From IMG/VR virus record IMGVR_UViG_2721755711_000002: 64,000 bases of DNA; one strand, written 5' to 3'. Shown in pieces: positions 8,252-48,566 of this stretch. Below the pieces are notes generated by a model that ran no database searches, was not told where the DNA came from, and saw nothing but the letters and a program-made list of their open reading frames with translations. Source of the DNA: a virus. Lineage: Duplodnaviria; Heunggongvirae; Uroviricota; Caudoviricetes. Both the position numbers and the translations under genes were made by a program. Within the stretch, counting starts at the first letter, position 1. Each line of letters opens with the position of its first letter.

Positions 8252-9414
8252 GATGCCTCCGGGGTGTCCTGCATAACCCAGCCTGTCAGCACGTCATCCT
8301 CAACCGTCGCCACTGACCAGCGGTCGCCCGACTGTAACGCATACCGCCACGCGTTGCCGTCCTGCGTGACATGCTCCGCCCGTTCGATGGTCTGCTGCAT
8401 CAGCACATAGTCGGCGGCGGTCGGGGGCGTGTCTGTTGCACTGAGGCGCTTCATGACGTCAGCCGTAAGGTTTACCGTCTGCCGTGCAGCGCCCGTGGCG
8501 GCGACCTGTTCCGGTGAACGGATGGCCAGCGGATATCGCTGGCGCGCATCCAGTTCGCTGACGTTCGCCAGTCCCCGGGCAAAATCCGGCCCGGTCAGGG
8601 TGCCGGTGACATACTGGCGGGCGCTGCGGTAATCATATTTTTCCAGTTCCGGCTGCCATGCCACCCGACCGGGATTAAATCCGAAGCCCGGGTCGGCGGT
8701 ATACACGGAGCCGTCCGGCATCTTCAGCCCCATTGTTCTGATGGTCTGGCCCGGCTGGCCATATTCCTGCTCAACCTCAACCAGTCGCCCCTCGCTGCTC
8801 TGCACCGTCAGGCCGTATTTCTCCACATCAGACGCCGAACGCGCCCGGATACGGCAGCGGCAGTGATAACCGTCCGGGGTGTATAAAAACTCCCAGACCG
8901 GGTCATCCGCCCGGGCGGTAAAACCGTTCAGGGCGGCGTGTTTCGGACGGGTGTGAAGGTCCATCACTGCCACGCGTTCAAAATAAGGCCGATCAGCCAC
9001 GTTCGCCATCTGTTGTTGATAACGCCCGGCGTTATATGACGACTGAATGTTGGTATCAAATATCGTGCGTAACCGGCGCGGCGTCAGTTGTCTGCCATGC
9101 AGTTCGCCGGTGTCCTCGTCCACAATCAGTTTTTTACCCAGCCAGCCTTTTGATTCCAGCAGTGGTTCCAGTTGTGCAGCAAACTCCCGGAACGTCCCGC
9201 CGTCAGCCAGTGCCGCCGTCAGGCCATCACGGACATCCTTCAGAACATCCAGTTTCAGCACACCCGCCACCGTGAACGCCCGGGCGTTGGCGATGTCCTT
9301 CACATCGTGCCAGCGGAAGCCGATAACGTACCCCTTGCTTTCGAAATACTTGATCGCTTCTTCCGGTTTCAGGGTGTACGCATAACCCAGGTCAACATCG
9401 TCAGCTGTCGGCAT
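8248..9414 (-). CDS. head morphogenesis protein (Mu gpF / gp30-like)
   Basis: 388 aa ORF overlapping the portal gene end; conserved portal-then-F order. Confidence 0.7.
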   Translation of the reverse strand: MPTADDVDLGYAYTLKPEEAIKYFESKGYVIGFRWHDVKDIANARAFTVAGVLKLDVLKDVRDGLTAALADGGTFREFAAQLEPLLESKGWLGKKLIVDEDTGELHGRQLTPRRLRTIFDTNIQSSYNAGRYQQQMANVADRPYFERVAVMDLHTRPKHAALNGFTARADDPVWEFLYTPDGYHCRCRIRARSASDVEKYGLTVQSSEGRLVEVEQEYGQPGQTIRTMGLKMPDGSVYTADPGFGFNPGRVAWQPELEKYDYRSARQYVTGTLTGPDFARGLANVSELDARQRYPLAIRSPEQVAATGAARQTVNLTADVMKRLSATDTPPTAADYVLMQQTIERAEHVTQDGNAWRYALQSGDRWSVATVEDDVLTGWVMQDTPEAS

Positions 9415-10996
9415 TCAGTCGCCCCCAGATATCCGCCACAAAGAATGCCTGCGTCAGCAACTGCCGCAGCGTGTCATCCGGCAGCTCCGGCCATGCTTCC
9501 GCCAGTACGTTCATGGCCTCGTCTGCATCCCGGCCTTCCTGTATGGCCTGCACCAGTGGGGCCACCAGTTCGTTCATCCCCTGCGCGATGGCCTCTGCCG
9601 GAAGCTCTGCCCGGTCGATGGTGCACTGTGCCGGGTCGTCCTCCCCGTTGTCCTGCTGACTGAGTACAGCAACATTCAGCCGCTCCCTGTGCTGGCTGAG
9701 GCCCGCCTGCGCAGGGAGACGCTGTGCCACTGGTACCAGTACCTCTTCGCCGTCTTTCGGGGTGGGGATACCGGTTTTTTTACGTACCCACGACACCGGG
9801 ATATCCTTCATCCCCACGTTATTGACCAGTATGCTGATGGCTTCCGCCACGCCCTTAATATCAGACTCCTGCTGTACATCGAATACCAGACGTGGCAGAC
9901 GACGAACCGGGATATCCTTCCAGCCATTCAGGCTGGCCATCATCTGGATCAGACTGCTGAACATGCCGGACAACTGGCGGGCATCGGCGGCCAGAATATC
10001 GTGACGGACCTCGTTGTGGATCACACCCAGCGCATTGGTGGAGGTTTTACCGTCTGCCTGTGTGGTTAACGTGCTGCCAAGAATGGCTTTTGAGGTGGTC
10101 CGCTCTGCCCAGTCCACCATCGCCATAAAGGCCTCCGGTCCGCCTGATGCGGCCTCCTTGAATTCAATCTCGTTACCCTGCGGCAGGGCTGCCACCGCTT
10201 CATGGCCCAGATTGACCAGGGCTTCGAGAATGTTGTCCCGGTCTTCGTCACTGGTGCCCTGTGCATAGTACGCAATACGCGCCGGAAGGCCGTAAATCTC
10301 CAGGAATTCCGCCATATCACGCAGCGCAAAGTTTTTGAACAGATACGGCCAGACCAGTACGCGGAACAGGCCGGATGAACCCAGGAGCCCCGACCGGGCG
10401 TTGTAACGGTGAACCAGCCAGCCGAACGGCCACAGTGCGGAACCGTCCTTACCATCTTCCCCGCGACCGCCGTCATCCAGCCGGAGTTCGTCATTGTGTT
10501 CCGGCAGGGTTATGAACCAGTTATGCGGGCGCAGCGTCACCGCATCCGGTAACCACGTTTTATCCACGAACGCCCAGCTGATTTCCTGACAGCTGAAGCC
10601 GTAACCGACACTGCTCATCCCGTTGAGGATGATGTCCTCCATGTCCGGGATACCGTGCAGCCATTCATCCACGGCGGCGGCCAGCTCCTTTTCTGCCTTC
10701 GAGGCATTGCGGGGCGGCTCCACCGACCAGTCCAGCGTCAGCAACGCTTTTTTGCGCTTTTCCATCTCGGCGAACAGATGGCCATCACGTTCTTCCATAT
10801 CCGCAAACAGCATCGCCTGCGCCGGAAGATAACCGCGTTCGGCAGCTTCCAGAATGCGCGGTAGTTTTCTGATGTTCAGACCACGCGACGGGTGGTCGGG
10901 ATAAATGCGCAGCCGTTCTGCCACTCTGACCGACTGCGTGGTTTTGAGTGCCTCACGTTTCAGCGGGCGTCCGTAAATATCAACAAGCTGTGCCAT
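9401..10996 (-). CDS. portal protein (Mu gpH / DUF935-like)
   Basis: 531 aa ORF directly downstream of the terminase large subunit. Confidence 0.75.
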   Translation of the reverse strand: MAQLVDIYGRPLKREALKTTQSVRVAERLRIYPDHPSRGLNIRKLPRILEAAERGYLPAQAMLFADMEERDGHLFAEMEKRKKALLTLDWSVEPPRNASKAEKELAAAVDEWLHGIPDMEDIILNGMSSVGYGFSCQEISWAFVDKTWLPDAVTLRPHNWFITLPEHNDELRLDDGGRGEDGKDGSALWPFGWLVHRYNARSGLLGSSGLFRVLVWPYLFKNFALRDMAEFLEIYGLPARIAYYAQGTSDEDRDNILEALVNLGHEAVAALPQGNEIEFKEAASGGPEAFMAMVDWAERTTSKAILGSTLTTQADGKTSTNALGVIHNEVRHDILAADARQLSGMFSSLIQMMASLNGWKDIPVRRLPRLVFDVQQESDIKGVAEAISILVNNVGMKDIPVSWVRKKTGIPTPKDGEEVLVPVAQRLPAQAGLSQHRERLNVAVLSQQDNGEDDPAQCTIDRAELPAEAIAQGMNELVAPLVQAIQEGRDADEAMNVLAEAWPELPDDTLRQLLTQAFFVADIWGRLNADS

Positions 10997-16598: not shown

Positions 16599-17012
16599 TT
16601 ATTGTTTACGTGCTGCTCTGGCTCGTTTTCTGGCGTCTTTTGTCAGCGCCACCATCACCCCGAACAGTTGATCATCTGTCAGCCATTCGATCACATGTTG
16701 CTTATACATGTGAGATGCCAGTCCTTCCGCATACGCCCAGGAACGACCGGCATCAGCCAGCAACGCTTCAATTTTGGATAATACTGATTTTCTGCTCATT
16801 GCAACACGGGGGCGGCGACCTTTACCGGCGGGTGCCTTGCGCGGAAATCCCTGTTCGTGCATGTATTCCCGGATGATGCGCAGTTCATCAAGATTGCAAC
16901 GTGTGGTGCTGGTTTTACCTGTCAGGCGGGCCAGTGTCTGGCGATAAAGGGCATCATCCCACCCCAGATACGCCTGACCGGCTTTAATGGCCCCGATCAT
17001 CTTTTTCAGCAT
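16599..17012 (-). CDS. GemA-like protein (Mu gp16-like)
   Basis: ORF with start proposed at MLKKMIGAIKAGQ; located just upstream of Mor/C-like gene as gemA is in Mu. Confidence 0.5.
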   Translation of the reverse strand: MLKKMIGAIKAGQAYLGWDDALYRQTLARLTGKTSTTRCNLDELRIIREYMHEQGFPRKAPAGKGRRPRVAMSRKSVLSKIEALLADAGRSWAYAEGLASHMYKQHVIEWLTDDQLFGVMVALTKDARKRARAARKQ

Positions 17013-21931: not shown

Positions 21932-22171
21932 TCATTGCCATACGACGGTGCAGCCGTCGATACAGGATGTTTTCACCACGCGGCGCAGGCCGCTGAATGT
22001 CTGGATGATTTCCGTTACCGGCCATACAGGACCACCCACAGGCGGGCAGGCATAAACCACAGGTAAACGGTGATGTTGCCCCGTTACACGACCGCCGGTG
22101 GTGTGGATGGCCACACGGGCACGGGAACGGACGGCATTAATGGTCTGCTTTTCCATCATTTTGTTCTCCAT
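21932..22171 (-). CDS. hypothetical small early protein (Kil-position)
   Basis: 79 aa ORF immediately downstream of the B-like gene, where Mu carries kil. Confidence 0.3.
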   Translation of the reverse strand: MENKMMEKQTINAVRSRARVAIHTTGGRVTGQHHRLPVVYACPPVGGPVWPVTEIIQTFSGLRRVVKTSCIDGCTVVWQ

Positions 22172-23064
22172 CAGTGAATTAACATTTCTGAATATTTATC
22201 AATGGCCTGCACACTGACCGGTGCATCGCTGATATCACAAATCCGGTACACACCACGCGCCAGCTTGAACAGACGACGGGCATTACCCAGCGAACGTGTG
22301 TAAAGTGCCTCACCAATTTCCGGGTCCGCCGCTTCCGGCATCATGTCTGTGGCAATCTTGTTAAAATCTTCCTGCGTCAGCGTATCGCCCAGGTTAAGCG
22401 CCAGCGCCACGCGGCTGTATAATTGAGCGAACTCACCACAACGGCCCTTAAGGTTAATCAGAAGGTGAGGCATACCCGCCAGGACAATCCCGATACCCGC
22501 TTTGTCATGCAGACGGCGCAATACCTCCAGTGCACGATAGGGGAGCAGTTCAGCCTCATCCACCATCAGCAGACGACCTGACCCACGCAGTTCACGCACA
22601 CAGGCATCAATCTTCTCGCGAATATCGCCGTGAACCTTTATGCCCAACTGGCGGCACAGTTCATCGAGTAACTTTCTGGCCGTATAGCCAATATCGGCTT
22701 CAATGAGCACTACATCCCGGTTTCTGGCGGCATATTCACTCAGAATCATGCTTTTACCCAGGCCCGCCGCGCCATACAGAACGCAAATATCACACTCCAG
22801 ATGGGCGTAGGTCAGTACTTCCAGCCCTTTGGCAGCCATGCCGGTGGTGACAAATCGCACTTTAATACGGCGGTTGTTTTCCTTTTCCCATTCACGGGTC
22901 ACAAAGGCAGAAATGCGTTCTTCAATATCAGCCATATCGCCCTGATATTTGCCCTGCAAATACTGGTTGATAACAGCGCTGCTACGACCAATAGCACGGG
23001 CAACGTGGGTCTGCGTAAAGCCGCGACGGGCCATTACGTCATTTAATTGCGTAATTAAACTCAT
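22171..23064 (-). CDS. Mu B-like transposition target-capture ATPase (AAA+)
   Basis: 297 aa; N-terminal HTH-like segment followed by Walker A LYGAAGLGKS; directly downstream of the MuA-like gene. Confidence 0.8.
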   Translation of the reverse strand: MSLITQLNDVMARRGFTQTHVARAIGRSSAVINQYLQGKYQGDMADIEERISAFVTREWEKENNRRIKVRFVTTGMAAKGLEVLTYAHLECDICVLYGAAGLGKSMILSEYAARNRDVVLIEADIGYTARKLLDELCRQLGIKVHGDIREKIDACVRELRGSGRLLMVDEAELLPYRALEVLRRLHDKAGIGIVLAGMPHLLINLKGRCGEFAQLYSRVALALNLGDTLTQEDFNKIATDMMPEAADPEIGEALYTRSLGNARRLFKLARGVYRICDISDAPVSVQAIDKYSEMLIH

Positions 23065-23082: not shown

Positions 23083-25125
23083 TTAACGATTATTTGTGCC
23101 GTTTTTCTTTAAATTGCGCTCACGGTCAGACACGAATAAATAAAGTTCTTCTTTTTCCTTTTTCTCCTGGCGTTCCAGTCCATATCCCAGATTAAACTCA
23201 GGTTTCTGCGTAATAGCCGGGGTAAGTTCGCGTTTAGCCTCTTCGATTTTCTGCGTGGCCCGTGCAATGCGGCCTCGGGCGCGTTTCTCCTGCTGCTGTT
23301 CGATAACGGCTTTCGGGAACGCATCGACCTTGTTACCGTTCCAGATGGCATCGCAGATATAAGAACCGTCCATTCGCCTGACAATCACGCTGTTTGCGTC
23401 GTGAATGTCGTAACAAACCCTGACTTCATTTCCGTGCTCTGCTGCCAGTTCTGTGGAGAAATAGATGTTTCTGAATAACACCACTTCACCGCGTCGCACC
23501 GTGCAGATGCTTTCCGGTCGGAACATTTCATGCAGTTCTTCCGGCGACAGCATGTCGATTTCAGCCTTTTGCTCTTTTATCAGTTTCCGGCGATACGCTG
23601 CCGGGCTGTAATGTTCGCCATCCTCTTTGCGGGGAAGGCTGCTGTGTGGTCGGTTGTTATACCGTTTCACCTCCAGCTCTATTGCGGCCAGCAGTTGCTC
23701 AAAGGTGGGGACTTCTCCCATCGCTTTAACCTGCCGTTTTGTCAGCTCTTTCCCTTTGTGGGTGGCCTTAATGGCTGACTGTGTGATGCGTTGCTGCATC
23801 ATCACCGTTTCCTTGTCTGCATTTTTTGAGCAGTACGTCTGGAAACTCAGGGCCACATCTTTGGGTATTCCTTTGTTTGCCCGTTCTATTACCCCGCGCC
23901 CCTGCGGGTTACCAGGTATCCCCGTGTGATGCTCCACACCCAGTCGGGGCAGAATCCCGGTAATATCGGCATCAAGCACCCGGTTTTTTTCACCGCCCCC
24001 GTTATCGGAGTAATAAATCAGCGGTATTCCGTGTTGTGACATGCCATGACGCAATGCATCAGCAACGGCTATCACGTTCTCCGACAGGGACAGCGACCAG
24101 CCCACAATAAAGCGTTGCCCCGCATCCATAACCAGCGTCACTTCTGGCCGGAATGTATTCCCGGTGGCGGGGCTGAATGCCATCAGTTTCATACAGTGAC
24201 CATCCCCGACCCATACCGCATTAACCGGTAATGTGCTCCAGTCGCGCCGCACAAAGGGATTGAGCGAACGCCAGGCTGAACCGGTGGAGCGGAAACGCTC
24301 CTTCACAATCACCGGGACGTTGCTTAACACCCGTCTTACTGCGTGAACTGAAGGCAGTGCTGCCAGCATTCCTGCGTCATTCGCGTGCTTTTCATGCCAC
24401 CAGGCTGAAAACTCGCGATACGCATATTCAACGGTCGGGCGCTTCCATGAGCGATAGAACATAAAGAAATCGCTCAACCACCAGACCTGCTCCCACGGTG
24501 TTCCCTTATGATGACCGGGAGCCAGTAACGCCAGTAACTGATTGGCATCACCGCGCGCCATCAACCAGGCGGAATACCATTCCTGCAAACTTCCCCAACT
24601 GACGCCAGTTCGCTTACCCTGTCTGGCGTTTGCAGTGCCTGCGGCCTCAATAATGCGGTCAGGTAACGCCCCCATGCGCACACCATCAATGATGTGTTTT
24701 ACTGCTGCCGTCCTGGACATTCCTGCGTATTCACGCAGTTTATGCACTTCGGTAGCCAGCAATATCCGCGCATCAGCGATGGCCTTTTGCTTGTCGGTCA
24801 GTGCCTGAACTTCGCGTAATGCCAGTTCCGGGCATTTGACCATCACTTCCAGTTCATCGCGAACGGTGACGTTTTTAACTGCCTTCTGCTCAACCACGGC
24901 GGGCAGTTGCGCATCTTCCAGAACCTGATGAGTCAGGCGCTTACGTAAAACTTTCTGCGCTTCAGTGGGCAGGCAGTCGATGTGATACTCGAATGCTTTG
25001 GTGCCTTCACGCTTGCGCTTCCATTCCGGGTGCGTCTCTGTGATCCGATTGAGCGTCCAGCGCACCCCCTGAACTGTACCGGGCAAACCAGGAAGACCGG
25101 CCAGCTCATTGGCTGAATAAAACAT
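23083..25125 (-). CDS. Mu-type DDE transposase (MuA-like)
   Basis: 680 aa ORF between ner-like and B-like genes; size and organisation as Mu A. Confidence 0.8.
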   Translation of the reverse strand: MFYSANELAGLPGLPGTVQGVRWTLNRITETHPEWKRKREGTKAFEYHIDCLPTEAQKVLRKRLTHQVLEDAQLPAVVEQKAVKNVTVRDELEVMVKCPELALREVQALTDKQKAIADARILLATEVHKLREYAGMSRTAAVKHIIDGVRMGALPDRIIEAAGTANARQGKRTGVSWGSLQEWYSAWLMARGDANQLLALLAPGHHKGTPWEQVWWLSDFFMFYRSWKRPTVEYAYREFSAWWHEKHANDAGMLAALPSVHAVRRVLSNVPVIVKERFRSTGSAWRSLNPFVRRDWSTLPVNAVWVGDGHCMKLMAFSPATGNTFRPEVTLVMDAGQRFIVGWSLSLSENVIAVADALRHGMSQHGIPLIYYSDNGGGEKNRVLDADITGILPRLGVEHHTGIPGNPQGRGVIERANKGIPKDVALSFQTYCSKNADKETVMMQQRITQSAIKATHKGKELTKRQVKAMGEVPTFEQLLAAIELEVKRYNNRPHSSLPRKEDGEHYSPAAYRRKLIKEQKAEIDMLSPEELHEMFRPESICTVRRGEVVLFRNIYFSTELAAEHGNEVRVCYDIHDANSVIVRRMDGSYICDAIWNGNKVDAFPKAVIEQQQEKRARGRIARATQKIEEAKRELTPAITQKPEFNLGYGLERQEKKEKEELYLFVSDRERNLKKNGTNNR

Positions 25126-25361
25126 TACGCCGCCTTACTGGCATACCGGCTTGGCCAGATCTCCGCAGGTTCCACACCAATAGCATCGGCTATGATGCGT
25201 TCATATTTAGGGCATGAGCGATACAGTGCATTTTTTAAAGAGTCTTTTTTTAGACCAGCGCGTTCAGAAAGTTCACGCAATGTAAAACCTTTGGTGTGCA
25301 CAGCGGCAACGATGTACTCGCGGTGCCAGTCTTTGTTCATTACTTCATTTCTAACCATCAT
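25125..25361 (-). CDS. ner: Ner-like DNA-binding regulator
   Basis: About 78 aa from internal ATG; C-terminal ...IADAIGVEPAEIWPSRY... closely resembles remembered Mu Ner (...ANALETKPEVIWPSRY...). Confidence 0.7.
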   Translation of the reverse strand: MMVRNEVMNKDWHREYIVAAVHTKGFTLRELSERAGLKKDSLKNALYRSCPKYERIIADAIGVEPAEIWPSRYASKAA

Positions 25362-25543
25362 TAGGTTACCCTTAAAAGTTATCCGTGCGGATAACACCGC
25401 CGTGTTATCCCTTCGGATATAAGTATTGATCCATATGTAACCCATGTAAAGCAAAAATAGCCTTTTCTTTGTATTTTCTTTTTGCTTTTGGTCTTTATAT
25501 GGTTTTGTGATTGAAAATCAATTGGTTAAATAGGAAAGGAAAA
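25362..25543. promoter_or_regulatory. divergent early/repressor promoter-operator region
   Basis: AT-rich intergenic region between divergently transcribed ner-like and repressor genes, analogous to the Mu Pe/Pc operator region; no motif-level assignment made. Confidence 0.4.
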
Positions 25544-26191
25544 ATGACAAAAAATGATGACGCTTTTTCTTTAGTTGACCGAGGAAAAGAAAGTTTTAGA
25601 GAGCGTTTAGTAAAACTAATAGGTGGGCGCAGTGTCAGAACTGCCGCGAGCGACTGGGGTATCCCTCCTTCAACCTTAAACAACTACATCCATAAAGGAA
25701 CAGAACCCTCTTTTAAAATAGCCTGCCTTATCTCAGATAAAGAGCGGGTGAGTTTAAATTGGCTCGCTTATGGTGAGGAACTCACCGCCACAGCAAACTC
25801 TTTATCAAACCAAACAGCGCAGCCTTCTCCCGATATTACAAACGAGCTAGCTAACGAGTTATTGAAAAGAGCGTCCACAGAAGATAAAGAACTATTGATA
25901 AATGCAATATGTGATATGGGTATCAAAGGAATCCTAAAACGTCTGCAACAACCCACTAGGCAAGCGAAACAAGCCGCTAACACGCTGGAGGAGCAAGAGA
26001 ATGCTATCCAAAGTCTGAATATCAGGAAATCACTTAAGGATGCAATCCGAGTAGCATTACATGGAAACGAAGATACTGACAGAGAGATTTTGCGAATTGT
26101 TGAATCTCATATACGACCACAATCGCCGGGTGATCAGACCGATGTCACACCGGAGCAAGAAACAAAATCTGTAAGTAAAAAATCAGCATGA
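25544..26191 (+). CDS. prophage repressor (HTH, XRE/CI-like)
   Basis: 215 aa from ATG 25544 (SD AGGAAAGGAAAA); N-terminal HTH-like segment (...RTAASDWGIPPSTLNNYIHKG...VSLNWLAYGE); divergent from ner-like gene. Confidence 0.55.
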   Translation: MTKNDDAFSLVDRGKESFRERLVKLIGGRSVRTAASDWGIPPSTLNNYIHKGTEPSFKIACLISDKERVSLNWLAYGEELTATANSLSNQTAQPSPDITNELANELLKRASTEDKELLINAICDMGIKGILKRLQQPTRQAKQAANTLEEQENAIQSLNIRKSLKDAIRVALHGNEDTDREILRIVESHIRPQSPGDQTDVTPEQETKSVSKKSA

Positions 26192-26479
26192 ACGCCTCGT
26201 TTTGGCGGGGCGCATGCTGCTAACTAATCAGCAACAACCACATCAAAACAAAACCAAACAGGAAAAATAAGGAAACGGGTACAGATAAAGCCCGTTTTAA
26301 AAGCATTTAAAACACGATCAATTATCTGCCATTAATGATTAAAACAGTCCAGATTTGAGCGCAAAAAAATGTACTTTTGATCATTTTCTTCAAAACGATC
26401 CAGAATCGGTAAAATCTCTCACATCCTGCGCCACTCAAGGCTTATAGGCTCGTCCAGGCTGTTCTCACTCAGTCCAGAA

Positions 26480-26755
26480 TTGATCACTACCCCACAGGTA
26501 ACAGAAGACGGTCGTCATGTTGAGGAAGTGCATGTCCTGGGGGATATGTACCGCCTGGAGTTCTATCCGCGTAACACTCATCTTGCAGCGAAGATTGAGT
26601 ATTGCCGGGACGGGAATATTCCGTGCATTCCTGTAGAAAAAGAGGATGAAGCCTACATCATCACACTGAACGGTGACACGGCGCGTTGTATCTGTCGTGG
26701 CGACAGTGAAGCCCGGAATGAAATAGCAAGATGTCGCGCCCATACAGATAAATAA
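26480..26755 (+). CDS. hypothetical ORF, possibly a 3' gene fragment truncated by the Mu-like insertion
   Basis: ORF begins only with a TTG call immediately outside the Mu-like end, without a convincing SD; followed by a strong terminator. Confidence 0.25.
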   Translation: MITTPQVTEDGRHVEEVHVLGDMYRLEFYPRNTHLAAKIEYCRDGNIPCIPVEKEDEAYIITLNGDTARCICRGDSEARNEIARCRAHTDK

Positions 26756-26764
26756 AAAGCAAAA

Positions 26765-26795
26765 ACCCCGGCTGCGGGAACAGTTCGGGGTTTTC
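26765..26795 (+). terminator. rho-independent terminator
   Basis: CCCCGGCTGCGGGAACAGTTCGGGG stem-loop followed by TTTT. Confidence 0.5.
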
Positions 26796-26826
26796 TGTTT
26801 CTGACCTTGAGTAAGCAAGGGAGAAC

Positions 26827-27009
26827 ATGGAGAAGTATAAACGAATTCTGTTTAGGTTGACTATGAAAAACGGCCTTGAATTGAAAGCGCCTGTAACTGA
26901 TGACATCAGCAGAGCGGTGGCTTTTGCCATTAAGTGGGTGGCTGTCGGTATCGCTGTGTCTCCGATTCTGTATGGGATGGCAAAATTGATCATTGCTGTG
27001 AAATCGTAA
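26827..27009 (+). CDS. small C-terminally membrane-anchored protein
   Basis: 60 aa; strong SD AAGGGAGA; C-terminal hydrophobic helix. Confidence 0.4.
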   Translation: MEKYKRILFRLTMKNGLELKAPVTDDISRAVAFAIKWVAVGIAVSPILYGMAKLIIAVKS

Positions 27010-27027
27010 GTGGGGCAGGGGTAAATA

Positions 27028-27161
27028 TGTCAGATAGCATTATAAAACTGGCGCGAATTCTCTGTGTGGTTGTTGGCCTTTCATTTTCAGCAATGTTGGT
27101 TGCCATTTTCATTTCCACCGCCTGGCGAGTATTGAGCTTATCCGGATTGATTGGTGGATAG
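27028..27161 (+). CDS. small hydrophobic membrane peptide
   Basis: 44 aa, almost entirely one transmembrane helix; SD-like GGGG upstream. Confidence 0.3.
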
Positions 27162-27165
27162 TGAG

Positions 27166-27348
27166 ATGAAGCGAAAACACTGGACACACAGAATGCCGCG
27201 AACGGCGGCGAAATGGGTACTGGTAGCGATACTGGTGCCTTTTTTCCTGGTGGGATGCGTCAGCCTGGATAAGGCGCGCCAGCTTTTCGATACGGCTTCT
27301 CAGGTCTGCGAAATTGTCGACGGTGTTCGACAGTGTCTGCAGAGCTGA
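27166..27348 (+). CDS. small lipoprotein, paralog of 14162..14344
   Basis: 60 aa; HWTHR motif, lipobox LVGC, conserved QLFD...VC.I.DG.RQC core shared with the Mu-like copy. Confidence 0.5.
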   Translation: MKRKHWTHRMPRTAAKWVLVAILVPFFLVGCVSLDKARQLFDTASQVCEIVDGVRQCLQS

Positions 27349-27510
27349 TCGCCCGTAAGAGCAGAATATTTTGCTGAAAAATGAAGGATGTGTCAGCGTC
27401 CGGAAAGCATGAAATTCTGCTGCGTGTACCAATTTTATCTTATTCATTCTAAATCTTGCCGAATCAAGCAACTGCCCGGGCGGCAAGGGGTATTTTTATC
27501 CGGAGGGGAT

Positions 27511-27735
27511 ATGAAGAGATTACTGGTAACCGTAAAGCCCTTTAACGGAACGATTCCATTCAGGGTTTTGCAGCGTGGACGTGTTCTGGTTAAGGATATC
27601 TTCAGTGGTAAATGCACGGAATGTTATTCCCGGACATATGAAGTGGATGCCACGGATGAAGAAATTTCTGTTGAATGTGATCTGAACGCGAATATGGCGG
27701 GGATTGTAACAGCCACGTTGTTGCCGGTTTCATGA
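27511..27735 (+). CDS. hypothetical small protein
   Basis: 74 aa from ATG 27511 with SD GGAGGGG. Confidence 0.35.
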   Translation: MKRLLVTVKPFNGTIPFRVLQRGRVLVKDIFSGKCTECYSRTYEVDATDEEISVECDLNANMAGIVTATLLPVS

Positions 27736-27777
27736 ATGACATAGAATGTCTCCGGGTACCCAAAAGGAGAACACTAT

Positions 27778-27991
27778 GTTTGTAGAAAATAACCTGAAGG
27801 CTGATCCTGATAATCAGGGATGGGTTCTGGGTTGGGCTGTAGTACGTGACAAACCGTGGCATCTGGTCGGTATTTATGCGACGGAGGATGGCGCAAAGTC
27901 TAAACGCTCTGAATTGAATGGGGAGTATGAAGTTCGTTATGGTTCCCATCGTTTAGGTAGTGATGATTTTATGTCTGTCGGACTTAGCTAA
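27778..27991 (+). CDS. hypothetical small protein
   Basis: 71 aa from ATG 27778 with SD AAGGAGA. Confidence 0.35.
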
Positions 27992-28052
27992 CTGGCTGTG
28001 ATGCCTGTTTGTAGCCCCGCAAATGCGGGGCTTTTTATATTTGGAGACGATA

Positions 28053-28445
28053 ATGAAAAAAACAGAAAATAAACCGGTTGCAATTGGTGCCGCTGTTGTT
28101 CCGTTTAAGTTTGAGTTGTCTCAACTGGTGGAGATGCGCATCAGTGATGAATGGGGTGAGGTTAAAGCCCGCGCGCAGTATGCGGATGGCGAAAACCAGT
28201 ACTTGATCCACTACAAGGCTGCTGATGGTCGCGCCACAACGGCGTGGTTTGGTGAGTCAATGCTGGAAGCAACAGAAGATGATCGCCATCCGGGCTGTCC
28301 GGTATTTGCCGGTATGAAATTACCGGAAGGCGCAGTTGAACTGCAGCCGGGTGAGGTGTTCGTAATGTCAGAAGTCATTGATGGCAAACCGCAGTATTCA
28401 CGTATTGAAACTAACGGCAAGGACGTTTGTCTGGTTCGCAAGTAA
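28053..28445 (+). CDS. hypothetical protein
   Basis: 130 aa from ATG 28053 with SD GGAGA; followed by a hairpin. Confidence 0.4.
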   Translation: MKKTENKPVAIGAAVVPFKFELSQLVEMRISDEWGEVKARAQYADGENQYLIHYKAADGRATTAWFGESMLEATEDDRHPGCPVFAGMKLPEGAVELQPGEVFVMSEVIDGKPQYSRIETNGKDVCLVRK

Positions 28446-28456
28446 CTTGCATTACA

Positions 28457-28479
28457 GCAGCCCTTCAGTGAAGGGCTGC
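28457..28479 (+). terminator. stem-loop without U-tract (weak terminator or RNA stability element)
   Basis: GCAGCCCTT CAGTG AAGGGCTGC, 9 bp stem. Confidence 0.3.
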
Positions 28480-28841
28480 GATAATGTGAGAAATAAAAAA
28501 CCGGTCACAGGGAGCAGCTACACAGAACCGGCCGGCGAAGACCGCCAATACCACCCATGCTTCAGTAAAACATGCATATGACATTAGCTGGTATTGATGT
28601 AAATGCAATGTTACGCATCGACAAAAATAAAAAACCGGCAGGGGAAATCCATGGAAGATTTGCCGGTGGCAAAAGTTGCCAATGCTTTTATAACCGTAGT
28701 CGCAGAGTTGCGGAGTGCAACTACGAATGCTGCAGGTATATGGCTGAATGGCGTTTCAATGATGTACGTCATCTTATCTGTAAATGTTAATGATAAACGC
28801 TCCCATTTGTGCGGGTCCTTTCCGGGAGTTGAAACACCGGG

Positions 28842-28882
28842 GGTCATGGGACGCGCAAAAACGCGCTATTTATGAAAATTTT
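28842..28882 (+). other. cos site (cosN-like cohesive-end region) of the lambda-like packaging module
   Basis: CTATTTATGAAAATTTT (28866..28882) is identical to the segment immediately right of cosN at the phage lambda left end as I recall it; lies about 185 bp upstream of the Nu1-like start as in lambda. Nick positions not determined. Confidence 0.5.
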
Positions 28883-29027
28883 TCGAGTTCCACTTCCGGT
28901 TTTTTAATTATCTAACCAATTGATTAGATTGTTTTTAGTTATCAAGAAAACCGGAAGTCCGACCAGTTTGTGGGAAAATAGCGGCAAAAACGGAGTTGAG
29001 TGTAAAGTGAACAGCTAAAGAGGGTGT

Positions 29028-29537
29028 ATGGCAACGCAGGCGGAGGTAGCCGAGCATCTTGGTATAACTGAACGCTGGTTGCGGGATCTTCAGAAGCACC
29101 CGGGAGCGCCAAAAAATCGAAAGCGTGGTGAATACGATATTGATGCCTGGCGATATTTTTATATTTCATACCTTAAACGCAAAGGAAGAAGCGATACTGA
29201 TGACGATGGAAATAGCGATTACGAAGAAAAATTACTTATCGCCAGATGGAAATTGACTGAAGAACAGGCAATAGCACAGCAATTAAAAAATCAGGTAACC
29301 GAAGGCAAGCTCATTGATTCTGGGTTCTGCGTTTTCGCTCTCAGCAAACTGGCGATGGCATTGTCCAGTACGCTTGATTCCATTCCTTTATCCATGCAGC
29401 GACAGTTCCCGGATTTAACCCCGCGTCATATCGATTATCTGAAAACCCTTATCGCAAAAGGCGCGAATCAGTGTGCGCGGACAGGGGATAAATTGCCGGA
29501 GTTACTCGATGAATATATCCGAACTACAGCTGAATAA
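29028..29537 (+). CDS. nu1: terminase small subunit (lambda Nu1-like)
   Basis: 169 aa; ...FCVFALSKLAMALSSTLDSIPLSMQRQFPDLTPRHIDYLK... parallels remembered lambda Nu1 (...FCTFVLSRIAGEIASILDGLPLSVQRRFPELENRHVDFLK...). Confidence 0.8.
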   Translation: MATQAEVAEHLGITERWLRDLQKHPGAPKNRKRGEYDIDAWRYFYISYLKRKGRSDTDDDGNSDYEEKLLIARWKLTEEQAIAQQLKNQVTEGKLIDSGFCVFALSKLAMALSSTLDSIPLSMQRQFPDLTPRHIDYLKTLIAKGANQCARTGDKLPELLDEYIRTTAE

Positions 29538-31425
29538 TATGATGGCTGCTGTTTCAGTTGCGCTGCAGCCTCTGGTCAGGGTTGTACCGATGACGGCAGT
29601 TGAATGGGCTGATCAAAATTATTATCTGCCTAAAGAATCGTCATACGGTGATGGGGAATGGAAAACACTGCCGTTCCAGGTCGCCATTATGAACAGCATG
29701 GGGCACGACAGGATCCGCACTGTTAATCTGATTAAATCGGCGCGTGTGGGTTACACCAAAATGCTGCTGGGCGTGGTCGGGTATTTTATTGAGCATAAAT
29801 CCCGTAACAGCCTGCTCTTCCAGCCGACAGATTCCGCAGCTGAAGATTTTATGAAAGCGCATGTGGAAGCAACGCTCCGGGATGTCCCCAGCCTTAAAGC
29901 GTTATCGCCATGGCTGGGCAGAAAACATCGTGACAACACACTCACTCTGAAGCGTTTTTCCTCCGGCGTGGGGTTCTGGTGCCTGGGGGGTGCCGCTGCT
30001 AAAAACTACCGTGAAAAATCAGTGGATGTGGTCTGCTATGACGAACTCTCCTCGTTTGAACCGGATGTGGAAAAGGAAGGCTCGCCAACGCTGCTTGGCG
30101 ATAAACGTATCGAAGGTTCGGTATGGCCTAAATCCATACGCGGCTCAACGCCAAAAATTAAAGGTTCCTGTCAGATTGAAAAAGCCGCGAACGAATCTGC
30201 ACATTTTATGCGGTTTTATGTGCCATGCCCTCATTGTGGTGAAGCCCAGTATCTTAAGTTTGGCGATGATGCGACAACCTTTGGCCTGAAATGGGAGAAG
30301 GGTAAACCGGAAACGGTGTATTACCTGTGTGAACATAATGGCTGTGTGATCCGGCAGTCGGAGCTTGACCAGACCGACGGGCGCTGGATTTGTGACAATA
30401 CCGGGATGTGGACGCGTGACGGCCTGGCATTTTACAGCGCCGGTGATGAGGAGATGCCGCCACCGCGCTCAATCACGTACCACGTGTGGACAGCGTACAG
30501 TCCGTTCACCACCTGGGTACAGATTGTTTATGACTGGCTGGATGCGCTGAAGGATCCGAACGGTGTCAAGACGTTTATTAACACCACGCTCGGGGAGCCC
30601 TATGAAGAGGCCGTGGCAGAAAAACTGAGCTTTGAGTTGTTGCTGGAAAAAGTCTGCCACTATGATGCGCAGGTTCCCCTGCGGGTGGTTTACCTGACTG
30701 CCGGGATCGACTCCCAGAAAGATCGCTATGAAATTTATGTCTGGGGCTGGGCTCCCGGCGAAGAAGCCTTTCTGATTGACAAGCAAATTATCATGGGGCG
30801 ACCGGAGGACGAGGACACCCTTAAACGTGTTGATGCGGTGATCCGGAAAAAATACCGCCATGCTGACGGTACTGAAATTTCCATTTCCCGCGTCTGCTGG
30901 GATACCGGTGGTATCGACCAGGACATTGTGTATCAGCGTTCCAGGAAACACGGCACTTTTTTTGTGCTTCCCATAAAAGGGGCATCGGTGTATGGCAAGC
31001 CGGTGATCACCATGCCCAAAAAGCGCAACCAGCGTGGTGTGTTTTTGTGTGAGGTGGGCTCCGATACCGTCAAGGAAATGCTGTACGCCCGTTTTGCCCT
31101 GCCGGTGGTTTCTGCCAGTGAAGCAGCCCCGTATACCTTCCGTTTTCCGGATAACCCGGACATTTTTTCGGAAGAAGAGGCGCGTCAAATCGTAGCGGAA
31201 GAACTGGTGGAAAAGGTGGTTAACGGCAGGGTGAAACTGCTGTGGGATAAAAAAGGGCGACGCAACGAAGCCCTCGACTGCCTGGTATATGCTTATGCCG
31301 CCCTGCGCGTTTCGGTACAGCGGTGGCAACTGGACCTTGAAGCGCTGGCGAGGGCACGAAGAGATGAGCAGGATGAGGATGATATGAGCATGGAAGAGAT
31401 CGCGGCTGCACTGAGTGGAGGATAA
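29509..31425 (+). CDS. A: terminase large subunit (lambda gpA-like)
   Basis: Start MNISELQL...; ...TAVEWADQNYYLPKES..., ...WPKSIRGSTPKIKGSCQIEKAA..., ...CPHCGEAQYLKFGD... track remembered lambda gpA; overlaps Nu1 end as in lambda. Confidence 0.85.
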   Translation: MNISELQLNNMMAAVSVALQPLVRVVPMTAVEWADQNYYLPKESSYGDGEWKTLPFQVAIMNSMGHDRIRTVNLIKSARVGYTKMLLGVVGYFIEHKSRNSLLFQPTDSAAEDFMKAHVEATLRDVPSLKALSPWLGRKHRDNTLTLKRFSSGVGFWCLGGAAAKNYREKSVDVVCYDELSSFEPDVEKEGSPTLLGDKRIEGSVWPKSIRGSTPKIKGSCQIEKAANESAHFMRFYVPCPHCGEAQYLKFGDDATTFGLKWEKGKPETVYYLCEHNGCVIRQSELDQTDGRWICDNTGMWTRDGLAFYSAGDEEMPPPRSITYHVWTAYSPFTTWVQIVYDWLDALKDPNGVKTFINTTLGEPYEEAVAEKLSFELLLEKVCHYDAQVPLRVVYLTAGIDSQKDRYEIYVWGWAPGEEAFLIDKQIIMGRPEDEDTLKRVDAVIRKKYRHADGTEISISRVCWDTGGIDQDIVYQRSRKHGTFFVLPIKGASVYGKPVITMPKKRNQRGVFLCEVGSDTVKEMLYARFALPVVSASEAAPYTFRFPDNPDIFSEEEARQIVAEELVEKVVNGRVKLLWDKKGRRNEALDCLVYAYAALRVSVQRWQLDLEALARARRDEQDEDDMSMEEIAAALSGG

Positions 31426-45179: not shown

Positions 45180-46815
45180 CCTGAAAGCGAATATCAGGAT
45201 CGGCGGCACGATAGATCCGTCGTGGAAAAAATCGGTTGATGGACTGAAGCACGGATTATCAGGGGCAACGCAGGAAGTGGCTCGCCTGACTCGCCAGCAG
45301 GATGTACTGAAACGAAAAATTCAGGCTGGCGTACTGGCAGGGCAGGATATTACTGAACTGCGAAAGCAGTATGAAAAGCTGGGCAAAAAAATTCATGATG
45401 CCACCGGAGAGCAGGATAAATTTAACCGTAAGCTGGCACGTGCGGAACGTCTGGAACGCTGGAAAGGGCGTGGAAAGACCGCTCTGAAAGCGGGGTTAGG
45501 GCTTTCGGTCGGGGCAGGACTGACACTGGCAGGCGCTGCCGGTGCAGCACTTAGCCGGAACAGTGAAACTGCAGAGCGGGCAGGGATAGCCCGGAGTTAC
45601 GGTGTGGATTATGAGACGTATGCAGCGTGGGATTCGCTGGGTAAGCAGATGGGGCTGAACGGGGAAAACTTCGGGGATCTGTTTGAGGAGTACCGTAACA
45701 AGGTTTTTGATGATGATAATGGCGCATCGGATAAAGGTGCCATACAGCAGGTCTTCGGGGCGCTGGGGCTGAAAACCGGGGTGATGGCGGGAAAAAACAA
45801 CCAGGAGCAGGTTGAATTTCTTTTTGACCGATTGCTGCAGGTGAAGGATGAACAAAAGGCTGCCGGGATGGCGGATGCATTGTTTGGTGGTGAGGGTAAT
45901 AAGATCCTGACCTGGATACGTCTGTCAGGAAAAACTTACCGGGAGCTTATTGAGGAGCAGAAGCGCTATAACCTGGTGACCAGGGAAGGGGCGGATGGTG
46001 CCGTCCGGGGACATATCGCCGTCTCAAACCTCACCGGTGTTCTGGGTTCGTCCATTGATGAAATCTGTGGACAGCTGGGGAAAGAGCTGGCACCGAATAT
46101 TCAGCAGGTCACGGACGACCTGGCGGACTGGTTTAAAAACGGCGGGCTGGAAAAAATCAATACATTTATCAGAGAGGGCGCGCTGCCGATGTTGATCAAG
46201 GTGACGGCCTGGGCGTGGAATTTTGGAAAAGTCATTGCCGGGCTCACTGAAAAGGCCATCGAGTGGGGGCTGGCTGAAGATCCACGGAGTGACCGGCGTG
46301 AGGTGCTGGAATATCTGGCAAAAACAGGCTCACCAGAGCTGGCAAGGGCAGTGGCGAAGAGGAACGGGCAGGATAAATGGTTTGATGATCAGCTTAAAAA
46401 AAATCCCGATCTGACGAAGCAGGTTGTGAAGGCGTATACAGACACACGCGGTTTCCTGAGTGATGACGATAAAAAATTTGAGGCGTCCCTCGAGCCTTTT
46501 CTGGGGCCAGAAGACGATCCGGACTTTGACGGATGGGAAAAGAAAGCGCTTGATGTCCTCGCGAAGTATGACACCCCACCCGCTACAAAACAGGGGCAGG
46601 AAAAAACGGATCCTCTTTCTGCGCTTCACTACGTTCCGGGCAGTATCAGCCAGGTGGAAGTAAAACCCACGTATCAGATACGGGCTGAATTTAACCTCAC
46701 CCAGAAGCCCGGCGAGGATGCCGGACAGCTGGCAGACAGGGTGACGAAAAATCTGGGTGATATTGATTTTGGCCAGCGGGCCAGCATGACCGACAGTTAT
46801 GCATTCTGGGGGTGA
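45160..46815 (+). CDS. T: tail tape measure protein (P2 gpT-like)
   Basis: 551 aa after E/E'; coiled-coil N-terminus and Gly-rich hydrophobic segment. Confidence 0.7.
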   Translation: MATVGDNLKANIRIGGTIDPSWKKSVDGLKHGLSGATQEVARLTRQQDVLKRKIQAGVLAGQDITELRKQYEKLGKKIHDATGEQDKFNRKLARAERLERWKGRGKTALKAGLGLSVGAGLTLAGAAGAALSRNSETAERAGIARSYGVDYETYAAWDSLGKQMGLNGENFGDLFEEYRNKVFDDDNGASDKGAIQQVFGALGLKTGVMAGKNNQEQVEFLFDRLLQVKDEQKAAGMADALFGGEGNKILTWIRLSGKTYRELIEEQKRYNLVTREGADGAVRGHIAVSNLTGVLGSSIDEICGQLGKELAPNIQQVTDDLADWFKNGGLEKINTFIREGALPMLIKVTAWAWNFGKVIAGLTEKAIEWGLAEDPRSDRREVLEYLAKTGSPELARAVAKRNGQDKWFDDQLKKNPDLTKQVVKAYTDTRGFLSDDDKKFEASLEPFLGPEDDPDFDGWEKKALDVLAKYDTPPATKQGQEKTDPLSALHYVPGSISQVEVKPTYQIRAEFNLTQKPGEDAGQLADRVTKNLGDIDFGQRASMTDSYAFWG

Positions 46816-47306
46816 TGATGGTGGATTTTGTTGGCTTTGGCGCAAACATGATTGAGCGCAAGGCATGGGACAGGATTGGTTCATTAACCGATGTGGCCTC
46901 GCGGGTCATGCTGTCGTTTGGTGAGTTTGAGTTCAGTATTGATTCAGCGGCGTATAACGCCATGAAGCGCACCATGGAATGGCGATGGGATGAGCAGCAG
47001 TTAATCGGAAAAAAGGATCTGCTGCAGTATACCGGTAAGGGGGCCAGAACGATAAGCCTTGAAGGGATGGTTCATGCGGGATTTCGTGACGGTGTGGGGA
47101 TGGATGCCCTTGATACGCTGGTTCAGATGGTGGATAAAAATCCTGCGCCGCATCTGCTGGTTTCCGGGACGGGGGATGTGATGGGGTATTTTGTTGTAAC
47201 CGCCTATTCAGATAACACCACGTCCTTTCTTCCCGGCGGTGCGCCGAAAAACAAAACGTTCACACTGGAGCTGAAATACTATGGCGAAAAACTGGCGGAC
47301 CACTGA
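46815..47306 (+). CDS. U: tail protein (P2 gpU-like)
   Basis: ORF after tape measure with overlapping stop/start (TGATG). Confidence 0.65.
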   Translation: MMVDFVGFGANMIERKAWDRIGSLTDVASRVMLSFGEFEFSIDSAAYNAMKRTMEWRWDEQQLIGKKDLLQYTGKGARTISLEGMVHAGFRDGVGMDALDTLVQMVDKNPAPHLLVSGTGDVMGYFVVTAYSDNTTSFLPGGAPKNKTFTLELKYYGEKLADH

Positions 47307-47499
47307 CGGCGATATGCTGGATGATATCTGTCAGAGACACTACGGCAGCGCCGGACTCAACCAGTCACTGGCGGCGGTACTGGAGGCTAATCCCGGGCTG
47401 GCTGATCTTGGTCCGGTGTATCCGTCCGGGGTGGAAATCGTGTTACCGGACTGGACATATGAGCCGGAAGAGAAGGAGACGTTTCAGTTATGGGACTGA
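47281..47499 (+). CDS. X: tail protein X (P2 gpX-like)
   Basis: 72 aa ORF between U-like and D-like genes, overlapping both. Confidence 0.6.
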   Translation: MAKNWRTTDGDMLDDICQRHYGSAGLNQSLAAVLEANPGLADLGPVYPSGVEIVLPDWTYEPEEKETFQLWD

Positions 47500-48566
47500 A
47501 TGAATATCAGCCGGATTTCAGTCTGACGGTGGAAGGCGAGGATATCACGAAAGCAATAAAACGCGGACTGGCTGAACTGCGTTATACCGATAATGGTGCT
47601 GCCACAAAGCGGGCTGATGAGTTAATGATAACGCTGTTCAGTGAAACGCTGGCATTGCCACCGAAAGGCGCAGTATTAACGCTGGGGCTGGGGTTTAACG
47701 GACGTCTGGTGAATAAGGGTAGCTTTACTGTCTGTCAGGTGGCAAGCGGTGGCCCTCCCCGCCGGATCACCATTTATGCCACAGCAGCCCCCATGAATGC
47801 GTCCAGGCATGGTGCAGATGTGACTGCACTGAAAACCCGCGCCTTCAGCGATGTCACGCTGGGTGACCTGGTAAAAACGATCGCCACTGAAAATAATCTG
47901 GTGGCGCGGGTATCTCCGGCACTGGAGAAAATTCGTATTCCGTGGGTGATGCAGTCATCTGAGTCGGATGCGTCCCTGCTTTCCCGGCTTGCAGGGATGT
48001 ACGGTGCCACCAGTAAACCGATGAACGGTTACTGGTTATTTCTGGAGTATGGTGCGTCGCAGAGTACCGGAGGCAGGGATGCCCCTGTGATGACCATCAC
48101 ACCGGATATGGTGTCAGACTGGGATTACCGGGAGGGCGATCGGCAGGGGGCATCCGGAGGCGGAAAAGGGGGAAAGGTTGGTGTCAGGTACTTTACTCCG
48201 TCTGATGGTCGCACGCGTGAACTTAAAGTGGATGTGGAGTCCACAGACAAGCGGCATCCCTTCACCCAGCCAGACCAGAGCACGGCAGAACATTGTGCAC
48301 AGTCGAAGGTAAAGCGGGTGCAGAAAGCGGGGCGTCAGATGACGATAACGCTGCCCTGCCGACCGGTATTGCTGAAAGCGGGGGCGGAAGTGCGCTTTAT
48401 CACACGGGGCTTCGGGGTACGGGAGGACCATAACTGGCAGGCAGAGTCAGTGGAATTTTCGTTGTCACCGGTGCAGGGATTTTCGCTGAATCTGTCGCTG
48501 GCCACGGATATTTCTGCAAAGGGGAAAGCCAGTGGCAAGAAAAAAGGCGTCAATTATTTTGGTTAA
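47490..48566 (+). CDS. D: late control / tail protein (P2 gpD-like)
   Basis: 358 aa ORF closing the P2-like tail cluster. Confidence 0.7.
   Translation: MGLNEYQPDFSLTVEGEDITKAIKRGLAELRYTDNGAATKRADELMITLFSETLALPPKGAVLTLGLGFNGRLVNKGSFTVCQVASGGPPRRITIYATAAPMNASRHGADVTALKTRAFSDVTLGDLVKTIATENNLVARVSPALEKIRIPWVMQSSESDASLLSRLAGMYGATSKPMNGYWLFLEYGASQSTGGRDAPVMTITPDMVSDWDYREGDRQGASGGGKGGKVGVRYFTPSDGRTRELKVDVESTDKRHPFTQPDQSTAEHCAQSKVKRVQKAGRQMTITLPCRPVLLKAGAEVRFITRGFGVREDHNWQAESVEFSLSPVQGFSLNLSLATDISAKGKASGKKKGVNYFG

Follow-up and report, generated by a model that had tools for sequence, protein, structure and literature searches.

Three small, separately exchanged genes between the lysis cassette and cos of a lambda-like prophage: probable cargo of the late operon

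We suggest that three small consecutive genes in the lysis-to-cos stretch of a lambdoid prophage, termed here orfA, orfB and orfC, are separately mobile, dispensable cargo of the late operon and encode small cytoplasmic binder proteins, a reading to which we give somewhat better than an even chance. The genes are real, they are exchanged as modules and are independent of any one packaging or lysis type, they are accompanied by a terminator and by no recognisable promoter, and their products are soluble. We infer that they are expressed only late and that they act by binding; what they bind is a matter of speculation. As cargo they are ordinary for this hypervariable spot.

Genomic setting

The window, by which we mean the whole stretch of 64,000 nucleotides analysed here, contains two prophages, a Mu-like one at 1-26496 and a lambda-like one from 26497 onward. 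The former lies on the minus strand, with its c-type repressor gene on the plus strand, and includes the following genes:

9401-10996, Mu-type portal
22171-23064, MuB-like AAA protein
23083-25125, Mu transposase
25125-25340, Ner-like HTH protein
25511-26191, plus strand, c repressor

The latter carries Nu1 and A terminase genes and genes for a lambda-family portal, an S49 protease and an E-type capsid protein. Likeness to E. coli lambdoid prophages begins exactly at 26497: the Mu-like prophage sits inside the lambdoid one, its end (…CCCCACA, 26496) abutting codon 7-8 of a late gene for a 93-aa protein. The insertion lies about 1 kb upstream of the three genes and splits the late operon from Q, the late promoter, holin and endolysin, so that orfA, orfB and orfC are probably silent, that is, not expressed in the normal way, in this genome. 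The undisturbed order is seen in intact relatives in E. coli R1 and MB06234, where, on one strand downstream of Q, two holin genes are followed by the endolysin gene, the 93-aa gene, an envelope trio of 60, 44 and 60 aa, the 74-, 71- and 130-aa genes, about 580 nt, terS and terL. The corresponding features of the window are:

26497-26755, plus strand, 3' remnant of the 93-aa late gene, cut by the Mu-like prophage
26827-27348, plus strand, three tiny envelope proteins ending the lysis cassette
27511-27735, plus strand, orfA, 74 aa
27776-27991, plus strand, orfB, 71 aa
28053-28445, plus strand, orfC, 130 aa
28784-28885, plus strand, cos region with lambda-like cosN flanks
29028-29537, plus strand, terminase small subunit gene terS, Nu1 family (PF07471, E 5.7e-20)
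29473-31425, terminase large subunit gene, after terS

The truncated 93-aa gene is followed by a hairpin (26757-26795, dG -20.3) with T-runs on both strands, which is terminator-like in both directions, its minus-strand version having been caught by the terminator scan, and which is another insulator within the late operon. The Mu c gene is oriented outward to the cassette, and read-out into 26497 onward, up to this terminator, is conceivable. One intact relative (L003 8695-8901) has an unannotated 68-aa Cys/His-rich ORF (MKYYVHTLTDNQNDHEVHTETCF...CYWCCRDCHTS) between endolysin and the 93-aa gene, which may be a further small cargo gene; the window's counterpart of this DNA falls beyond the Mu-like insertion. 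Rfam gave no match above the gathering score over 26000-29300.

The envelope trio comprises a 60-aa protein with a C-terminal TM segment, a 44-aa TM protein and a 60-aa lipoprotein with the lipobox LVGC and three cysteines, and the lipoprotein gene is kept in all related loci, even where it is unannotated. The trio stands at the expected site of the Rz/Rz1 spanins, no Rz/Rz1 homology was found in 26827-27348, and it may be a non-canonical spanin set. Among relatives the upstream lysis genes vary, with GH108, M15 or lambda-R endolysins and either the lipoprotein trio or Rz. The interval between the endolysin and lipoprotein genes of E. coli C311 (L011 1583-2164) holds an opposite-strand gene for an LPS core heptose(II)-phosphate phosphatase, which is cargo of the classic lysogenic-conversion type in the same hot spot. 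The stretch that follows the lipoprotein gene (27359-27417) has a 24/24 nt match just after the endolysin gene in Stx phages (L017/L018 2211-2234) and matches a Salmonella prophage (L028 4021-4079) at 82% over 60 nt; it resembles a linker common to module borders.

Downstream, two collinear matches to the flanks of lambda cosN (28784-28825, 32/42 identities; 28864-28885, 21/22 identities) would place the nicking site near 28843-28854, about 400 bp past orfC, as expected from the sequence-only reading, which had put the three ORFs just upstream of cos. The lambda cosN 12-mer GGGCGGCGACCT is absent from this region, the 12 bases at about 28843-28854 being GTCATGGGACGC, and the cohesive ends probably differ from those of lambda despite the Nu1/A-type terminase. 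An exact copy of the lambda 12-mer does occur at 16810-16821, inside coding sequence of the Mu-like prophage. Chance alone would give about 0.01 such copies over both strands of 64 kb, and this one is probably a coincidence.

The three genes and their products

Each gene is preceded by a Shine-Dalgarno (SD) sequence, GGAGG for orfA (27502-27506, 4 nt before the ATG), AAGGAG for orfB (27764-27769, 6 nt before) and GGAG for orfC (28043-28046, 6 nt before), which bears out the earlier description of three ORFs of 74, 71 and 130 aa with good SD sites. Dozens of homologue clusters exist for each of them. Pairwise Nei-Gojobori dN/dS against relatives is 0.07-0.27 for orfA, 0-0.24 for orfB and 0.14-0.35 for orfC, and the same comparisons show a third-position excess; with ratios of 0-0.35, all three are therefore real genes, under purifying selection. 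Of 5426 complete E. coli genomes, 61 have orfA, 31 have orfB and 264 have orfC, the last being about eight times commoner than orfB, and with so unequal a prevalence the three genes must travel separately. Their GC content (0.449 for orfA and orfB, 0.496 for orfC) offers no clear contrast to that of the neighbouring genes (0.437-0.546).

The three proteins have a pI of 5.1-6.2 and show no TM segment, signal peptide or lipobox, with a maximal 19-residue hydropathy of at most 1.3; they are soluble and cytoplasmic. Pfam, NCBIfam and PADLOC returned no match for any of them, PDB sequence and profile searches were empty or at the level of noise, and a literature search on accessions and PHROG ids found no paper. 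Direct homologues are gathered in PHROGs (orfA in phrog_2571, orfB in phrog_4280, orfC in phrog_1935/8618; E 1e-28 to 1e-66), in entries that all read 'unknown function', and none of the libraries searched assigned a function, in keeping with the earlier reading; nor did profile-HMM family searches yield a structural or lysis assignment, the outcome that the sequence-only reading had named against itself. No head, tail or terminase family matched, and the genes are not constantly linked to one morphogenetic module; the traits of holins, endolysins and spanins (TM helix, lipobox, muralytic domain, family HMM match) were likewise not found. Since they have no hydrophobic stretch, signal peptide, lipobox or family match, the proteins are not holins, spanins or endolysins, nor recognisable virion or terminase parts.

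The orfA product is a soluble small beta-sandwich, a phrog_2571-type domain with conserved Cys35 and Cys56. Annotated homologues start at the same Met; a longer reading of 115 aa (start 27388) was rejected, as homologues begin MK(K/R)LL and the upstream stretch is unconserved where Rz precedes the gene. A DUF1737 match on one homologue (P0107) was also set aside: it falls in an in-frame fused upstream gene, outside the orfA part. A homologue of the gene occurs alone in Stx1a, Stx2a and Stx2c phages, where its ATG overlaps the Rz stop (ATGA). The phrog_2571 model describes a protein of about 290 aa with the orfA-like domain at its centre, and such a domain is embedded in a 286-aa protein of phage PhiR46_1 (L027 2701-3561), composed of a coiled-coil, the sandwich and an unknown domain; Pfam gave no match on that protein.

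The orfB product is a soluble acidic protein with the motif GWVLGW...PWHL.G.Y...YGSHRLGSDDF and homologues in Pseudomonas, Serratia and Vreelandella. Relatives lie antisense inside tail-gene clusters of a Pseudomonas prophage, a Vreelandella prophage and Pseudomonas phage YMC11/02/R656, which is a classic place for a moron and implies independent expression there; in Serratia and phage mEp237 they stand after lysis genes. The UniRef name of one relative invokes DUF2188, and 0/38 family members match that Pfam model at E<=1. A type II toxin-antitoxin pair of orfA and orfB was rejected because the two occur separately, orfB without orfA in Pseudomonas, Serratia and mEp237 and orfA without orfB in the Stx phages; PADLOC and Pfam gave no toxin-antitoxin match.

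In the orfC product an N-terminal SH3/Tudor-like barrel (about residues 17-75) is joined through a PGCPVF linker to a C-terminal part of 34 aa (28339-28440) that is facultative. Structure prediction gives a confident five-stranded barrel (pLDDT 85-91), a disordered linker and a C-terminal three-stranded sheet of low confidence. A profile search with the N-terminal domain over 1.84 billion representatives found 642 relatives at the 50% identity level, nearly all of them small phage proteins that belong to phrog_8618/1935 and to no Pfam family. Most are stand-alone proteins of about 60 aa and some are tandem or fused: among the variants (P0043, P0182, P0066, P0187, P0231) the barrel is duplicated in tandem, follows tail-fibre-assembly-like N-termini or forms the N-terminus of repeat proteins of 270-390 aa. 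Foldseek against BFVD returned uncharacterised small phage proteins only. Genes for homologues of the domain come right behind terS in a Yersinia prophage and in the P2-like ESSI2 phages, whose copy is annotated 'L33'; among P2-like phages, some have an orfC-type gene between terS and the adaptor gene and others do not. Further homologues are encoded behind an Rz-like gene in Salmonella, two genes from HNH/terS in Burkholderia phiBt-TXDOH and, as Bcep176 gp32 in a Burkholderia phage, among clustered tiny ORFs at a site apart from the packaging genes. The positions of orfB and orfC relatives are not tied to a single phage function.

Modular exchange and boundary elements

Module breakpoints were obtained by DNA comparison of the window with nine related loci, and the elements at issue are:

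27505-28036, plus strand, mobile promoterless module of SD, orfA, orfB and terminator, as delimited by homology breakpoints
28013-28042, plus strand, intrinsic terminator closing the orfA-orfB module (8-bp G+C stem, 4-nt loop, T-run; dG -17.3, z -3.8)
28446-28490, plus strand, very stable stem-loop (dG -28.9 kcal/mol, z -8.7)

In phiP27 and E. coli CFSAN018748 (L012), an unrelated 87 bp stands in place of orfA, orfB and the terminator (27420-28036), and the lipoprotein gene adjoins orfC; the same lysis genes are kept there without orfA and orfB. The direct orfC homologue of phiP27, L33, is 92% identical over 95 aa and of the short form, orfC existing as proteins of 98 and 130 aa that are separated by a clean indel at 28339-28440. 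In the Salmonella prophage L028, a block 85% identical to window 27505-28036 stands behind a canonical Rz gene and comprises exactly SD, orfA, orfB and terminator. This terminator, which the sequence-only reading had missed, consists of a hairpin at 28013-28032 followed by the T-run TTTTTATATTT, and the Salmonella prophage has the same stem and T-run after orfB, with a different loop. A terminator-like hairpin precedes orfC whether or not orfA and orfB are present. Judged from these breakpoints, orfA-orfB-terminator, orfC and the C-terminal part of orfC are independent modules.

What follows the cassette is equally varied, the packaging module being Nu1/A in the window, R1 and C311, DUF1441 plus TerL in MB06234 and PSS-15, and HNH plus P27-type terS in MEI7BO1-21 and phiP27. 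The stem-loop at 28446-28490 is kept in loci L001, L009 and L010, where it borders three unrelated packaging modules, and is likely a module-boundary or RNA 3'-end element. A terminal hairpin after orfC had been noted earlier, and the structure is there; lacking a U-run, it is not a canonical intrinsic terminator. In MB06234 the prophage looks otherwise complete, and its orfC homologue (L002 8755-9147) carries an internal stop and is annotated as a pseudogene, an observation consistent with dispensability.

Expression and the moron question

All three ORFs are on the late-operon strand, continuous with Q, holin and endolysin in intact relatives. No sigma-70-like site matching at least 9 of 12 positions was found on the plus strand upstream of orfA or orfC by consensus scans, which can miss weak or non-sigma-70 promoters; promoter-like sites lie inside the end of orfA (TTGCCG-15-TAGAAT, 9/12; TTGTTG-18-TAGAAT, 8/12) and over the orfA-orfB terminator (8/12). 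The conserved orfA-orfB module starts only 6-18 nt before the orfA ATG, that is, at the SD. We suggest, by analogy with lambda, that the genes have no promoter of their own and would be read from the Q-modified late promoter as an antiterminated transcript that ignores internal terminators. Such Q-dependent read-through, which rests on established lambda biology, seems the simplest reading, and proteins produced in this way would appear late in lytic growth, at the same time as those for lysis and the head. A conserved terminator on a promoterless module would make more sense if the lysogen had some transcripts that begin close by.

Morons in the Hendrix/Juhala sense (PMC2629481) include bor and lom of lambda and the ant moron of P22. 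Were our three genes true morons, they would be expressed from the repressed prophage via promoters that we failed to recognise and would give the lysogen a phenotype, such as phage exclusion or altered physiology, which we consider unlikely. Like the lambdoid morons, these genes include an extra block between genes that are adjacent in relatives, the indel being that of orfA-orfB-terminator relative to phiP27 and CFSAN018748; the block is terminator-closed, dispensable and mosaic in distribution, and it lies in the Rz-to-cos hot spot, where lambda carries bor. The canonical terminator of the orfA-orfB unit is conserved in Salmonella, and a terminator-like hairpin stands before orfC in both arrangements; orfC itself has no factor-independent terminator at its 3' end, where 28446-28490 has no U-run. 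The conserved terminators, together with the orfB homologues that run antisense in tail clusters of Pseudomonas and Vreelandella prophages and phage YMC11/02/R656, keep the independently expressed 'moron' reading alive, and the opposite-strand cargo gene in the same region of C311 also speaks for it. Against it stand the lack of a 9/12 promoter match upstream of orfA or orfC, a conserved orfA-orfB module that begins at the SD, the ATGA overlap of orfA with Rz in Stx phages, the shared late-operon strand, the lack of a PADLOC match, and cytoplasmic products unlike Bor, Lom, Cor or Sie-type factors. Of the earlier proposal that a moron hot spot is found here, the indel, the C311 cargo gene and the antisense orfB relatives sustain the place as a site for cargo, and what is missing is a promoter of the genes' own.

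The same proposal had drawn an analogy with bor and lom and expected expression in the lysogen, and this part of it is not supported. Bor, Lom and most exclusion proteins are envelope proteins; without a signal peptide or membrane segment, the orfA, orfB and orfC products are not Bor- or Lom-like, and tblastn of the three ORFs against lambda 45000-48502 (the bor-to-cos region) found no match at E<=10. The late strand, the absence of a 9/12 promoter match, the start of the module 6-18 nt before the ATG and the overlap with Rz speak against lysogenic expression. The genes differ from lambdoid morons, then, in having no recognisable promoter, in lying on the late-operon strand, in being translationally coupled in some phages, and in encoding cytoplasmic rather than envelope proteins with no sequence likeness to the lambda bor region. 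A further parallel is presumably offered by prophage DLP12 of E. coli K-12, in which ybcV and ybcW, which we take to be non-essential, lie between Rz/bor and the nohD terminase remnant; as far as we are aware they share both the class of position and the status of orfA-C as small, uncharacterised, late-strand genes.

Possible roles in lysis or packaging

If the genes were instead accessories of the lysis module, their products would act from the cytoplasm to tune the holin-endolysin-spanin pathway, for instance in its timing or in the working of the spanins. Enterobacterial copies invariably follow the final lysis gene directly, which is the lipoprotein gene in the window and Rz in Salmonella and in Stx phages. 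Translation of orfA is coupled to that of Rz in the Stx phages, and where packaging modules have been swapped the cassette has remained beside the lysis genes. The lysis cassettes concerned are, however, of unrelated types (GH108, M15 or lambda-R; lipoprotein trio or Rz), phiP27 and CFSAN018748 retain the same lysis genes without orfA and orfB, relatives of orfB and orfC are found in tail, head or early regions elsewhere, and none of the proteins has a membrane anchor. We regard such a role as improbable.

HspQ/YccV has been described as a binder of hemimethylated DNA, and orfC might be a small barrel that binds DNA and assists terminase in packaging or at cos; it adjoins packaging genes in the window (before cos/terS) and in phiP27 (before HNH-cos-terS), and comparable neighbourhoods recur in the ESSI2 phages, the Yersinia prophage and phiBt-TXDOH. 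This we hold to be very improbable, since non-homologous terminase systems of at least four kinds accompany the gene, one prophage that otherwise looks intact has it as a pseudogene, Bcep176 gp32 lies away from packaging genes, and the protein is acidic (pI 5.1).

The orfC barrel and HspQ

The resemblance of orfC to HspQ bears on what it might bind. The modelled orfC barrel appears to share fold and topology with the YccV/HspQ-like domain, which we take to be PF08755 of Pfam. In hhalign, a broad family profile (A5) aligns with HspQ over the whole barrel at E 4.8e-4 and a probability of only 32%, and a narrower one (A1) at E 0.15; the Pfam YccV-like model matches neither orfC at E<=0.1 nor ten family members at E<=1, and PDB searches with the orfC family profiles brought up no HspQ. 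Compared with HspQ (PDB 5ycq), the orfC barrel is without the long insertion, is phage-encoded and has the PGCPVF motif and an optional beta-hairpin domain. We treat the resemblance as a lead, and orfC as at most a candidate member of the HspQ family.

HspQ is an activator and substrate of Lon and an inhibitor of ClpS (PMC6719616), and the YccV-like domain of PDIP38 modulates CLPXP (PMC7647994). It is conceivable, as a long shot, that orfC stands for a very large family of phage mini-proteins, not listed in Pfam and numbering at least 642 clusters at 50% identity, which are remote homologues of HspQ/YccV. Made late, they would bind one of the host's AAA+ protease systems (Lon, ClpS/ClpAP or ClpX) and retune or block it, and orfA and orfB would be further separately mobile host-binding effectors. 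If so, phage proteins could be shielded, or abortive-infection or toxin-antitoxin responses that a protease triggers could be halted.

Implications

Returning to cargo carried by the late operon as the reading we prefer, orfA, orfB and orfC would be independent, horizontally exchanged accessory genes that occupy the hypervariable DNA from the lysis cassette to cos and are dispensable for phage production. Their products, a beta-sandwich from orfA, a putative alpha/beta mini-protein from orfB and an SH3/Tudor-like barrel with an optional C-terminal beta-hairpin from orfC, would most likely act by stoichiometric binding of a host or competitor macromolecule and not by catalysis, action on the membrane or virion building. 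For orfC, analogy with HspQ/YccV would favour an AAA+ protease or a nucleic acid as the class of partner.

These results present the Rz-to-cos interval of such enterobacterial prophages as a cargo hot spot made up of very small and precisely bounded modules, one of them being just an SD, two genes and a terminator. Three common 'hypothetical proteins', one of which has relatives in Shiga-toxin phages, thereby gain a status as real, soluble and dispensable proteins that are not parts of the virion or of the lysis or packaging machinery. Should the HspQ-like reading of orfC hold, host AAA+ proteases would be the targets of a widespread family of phage mini-proteins, and this is the sole lead among those followed here with a wider reach.
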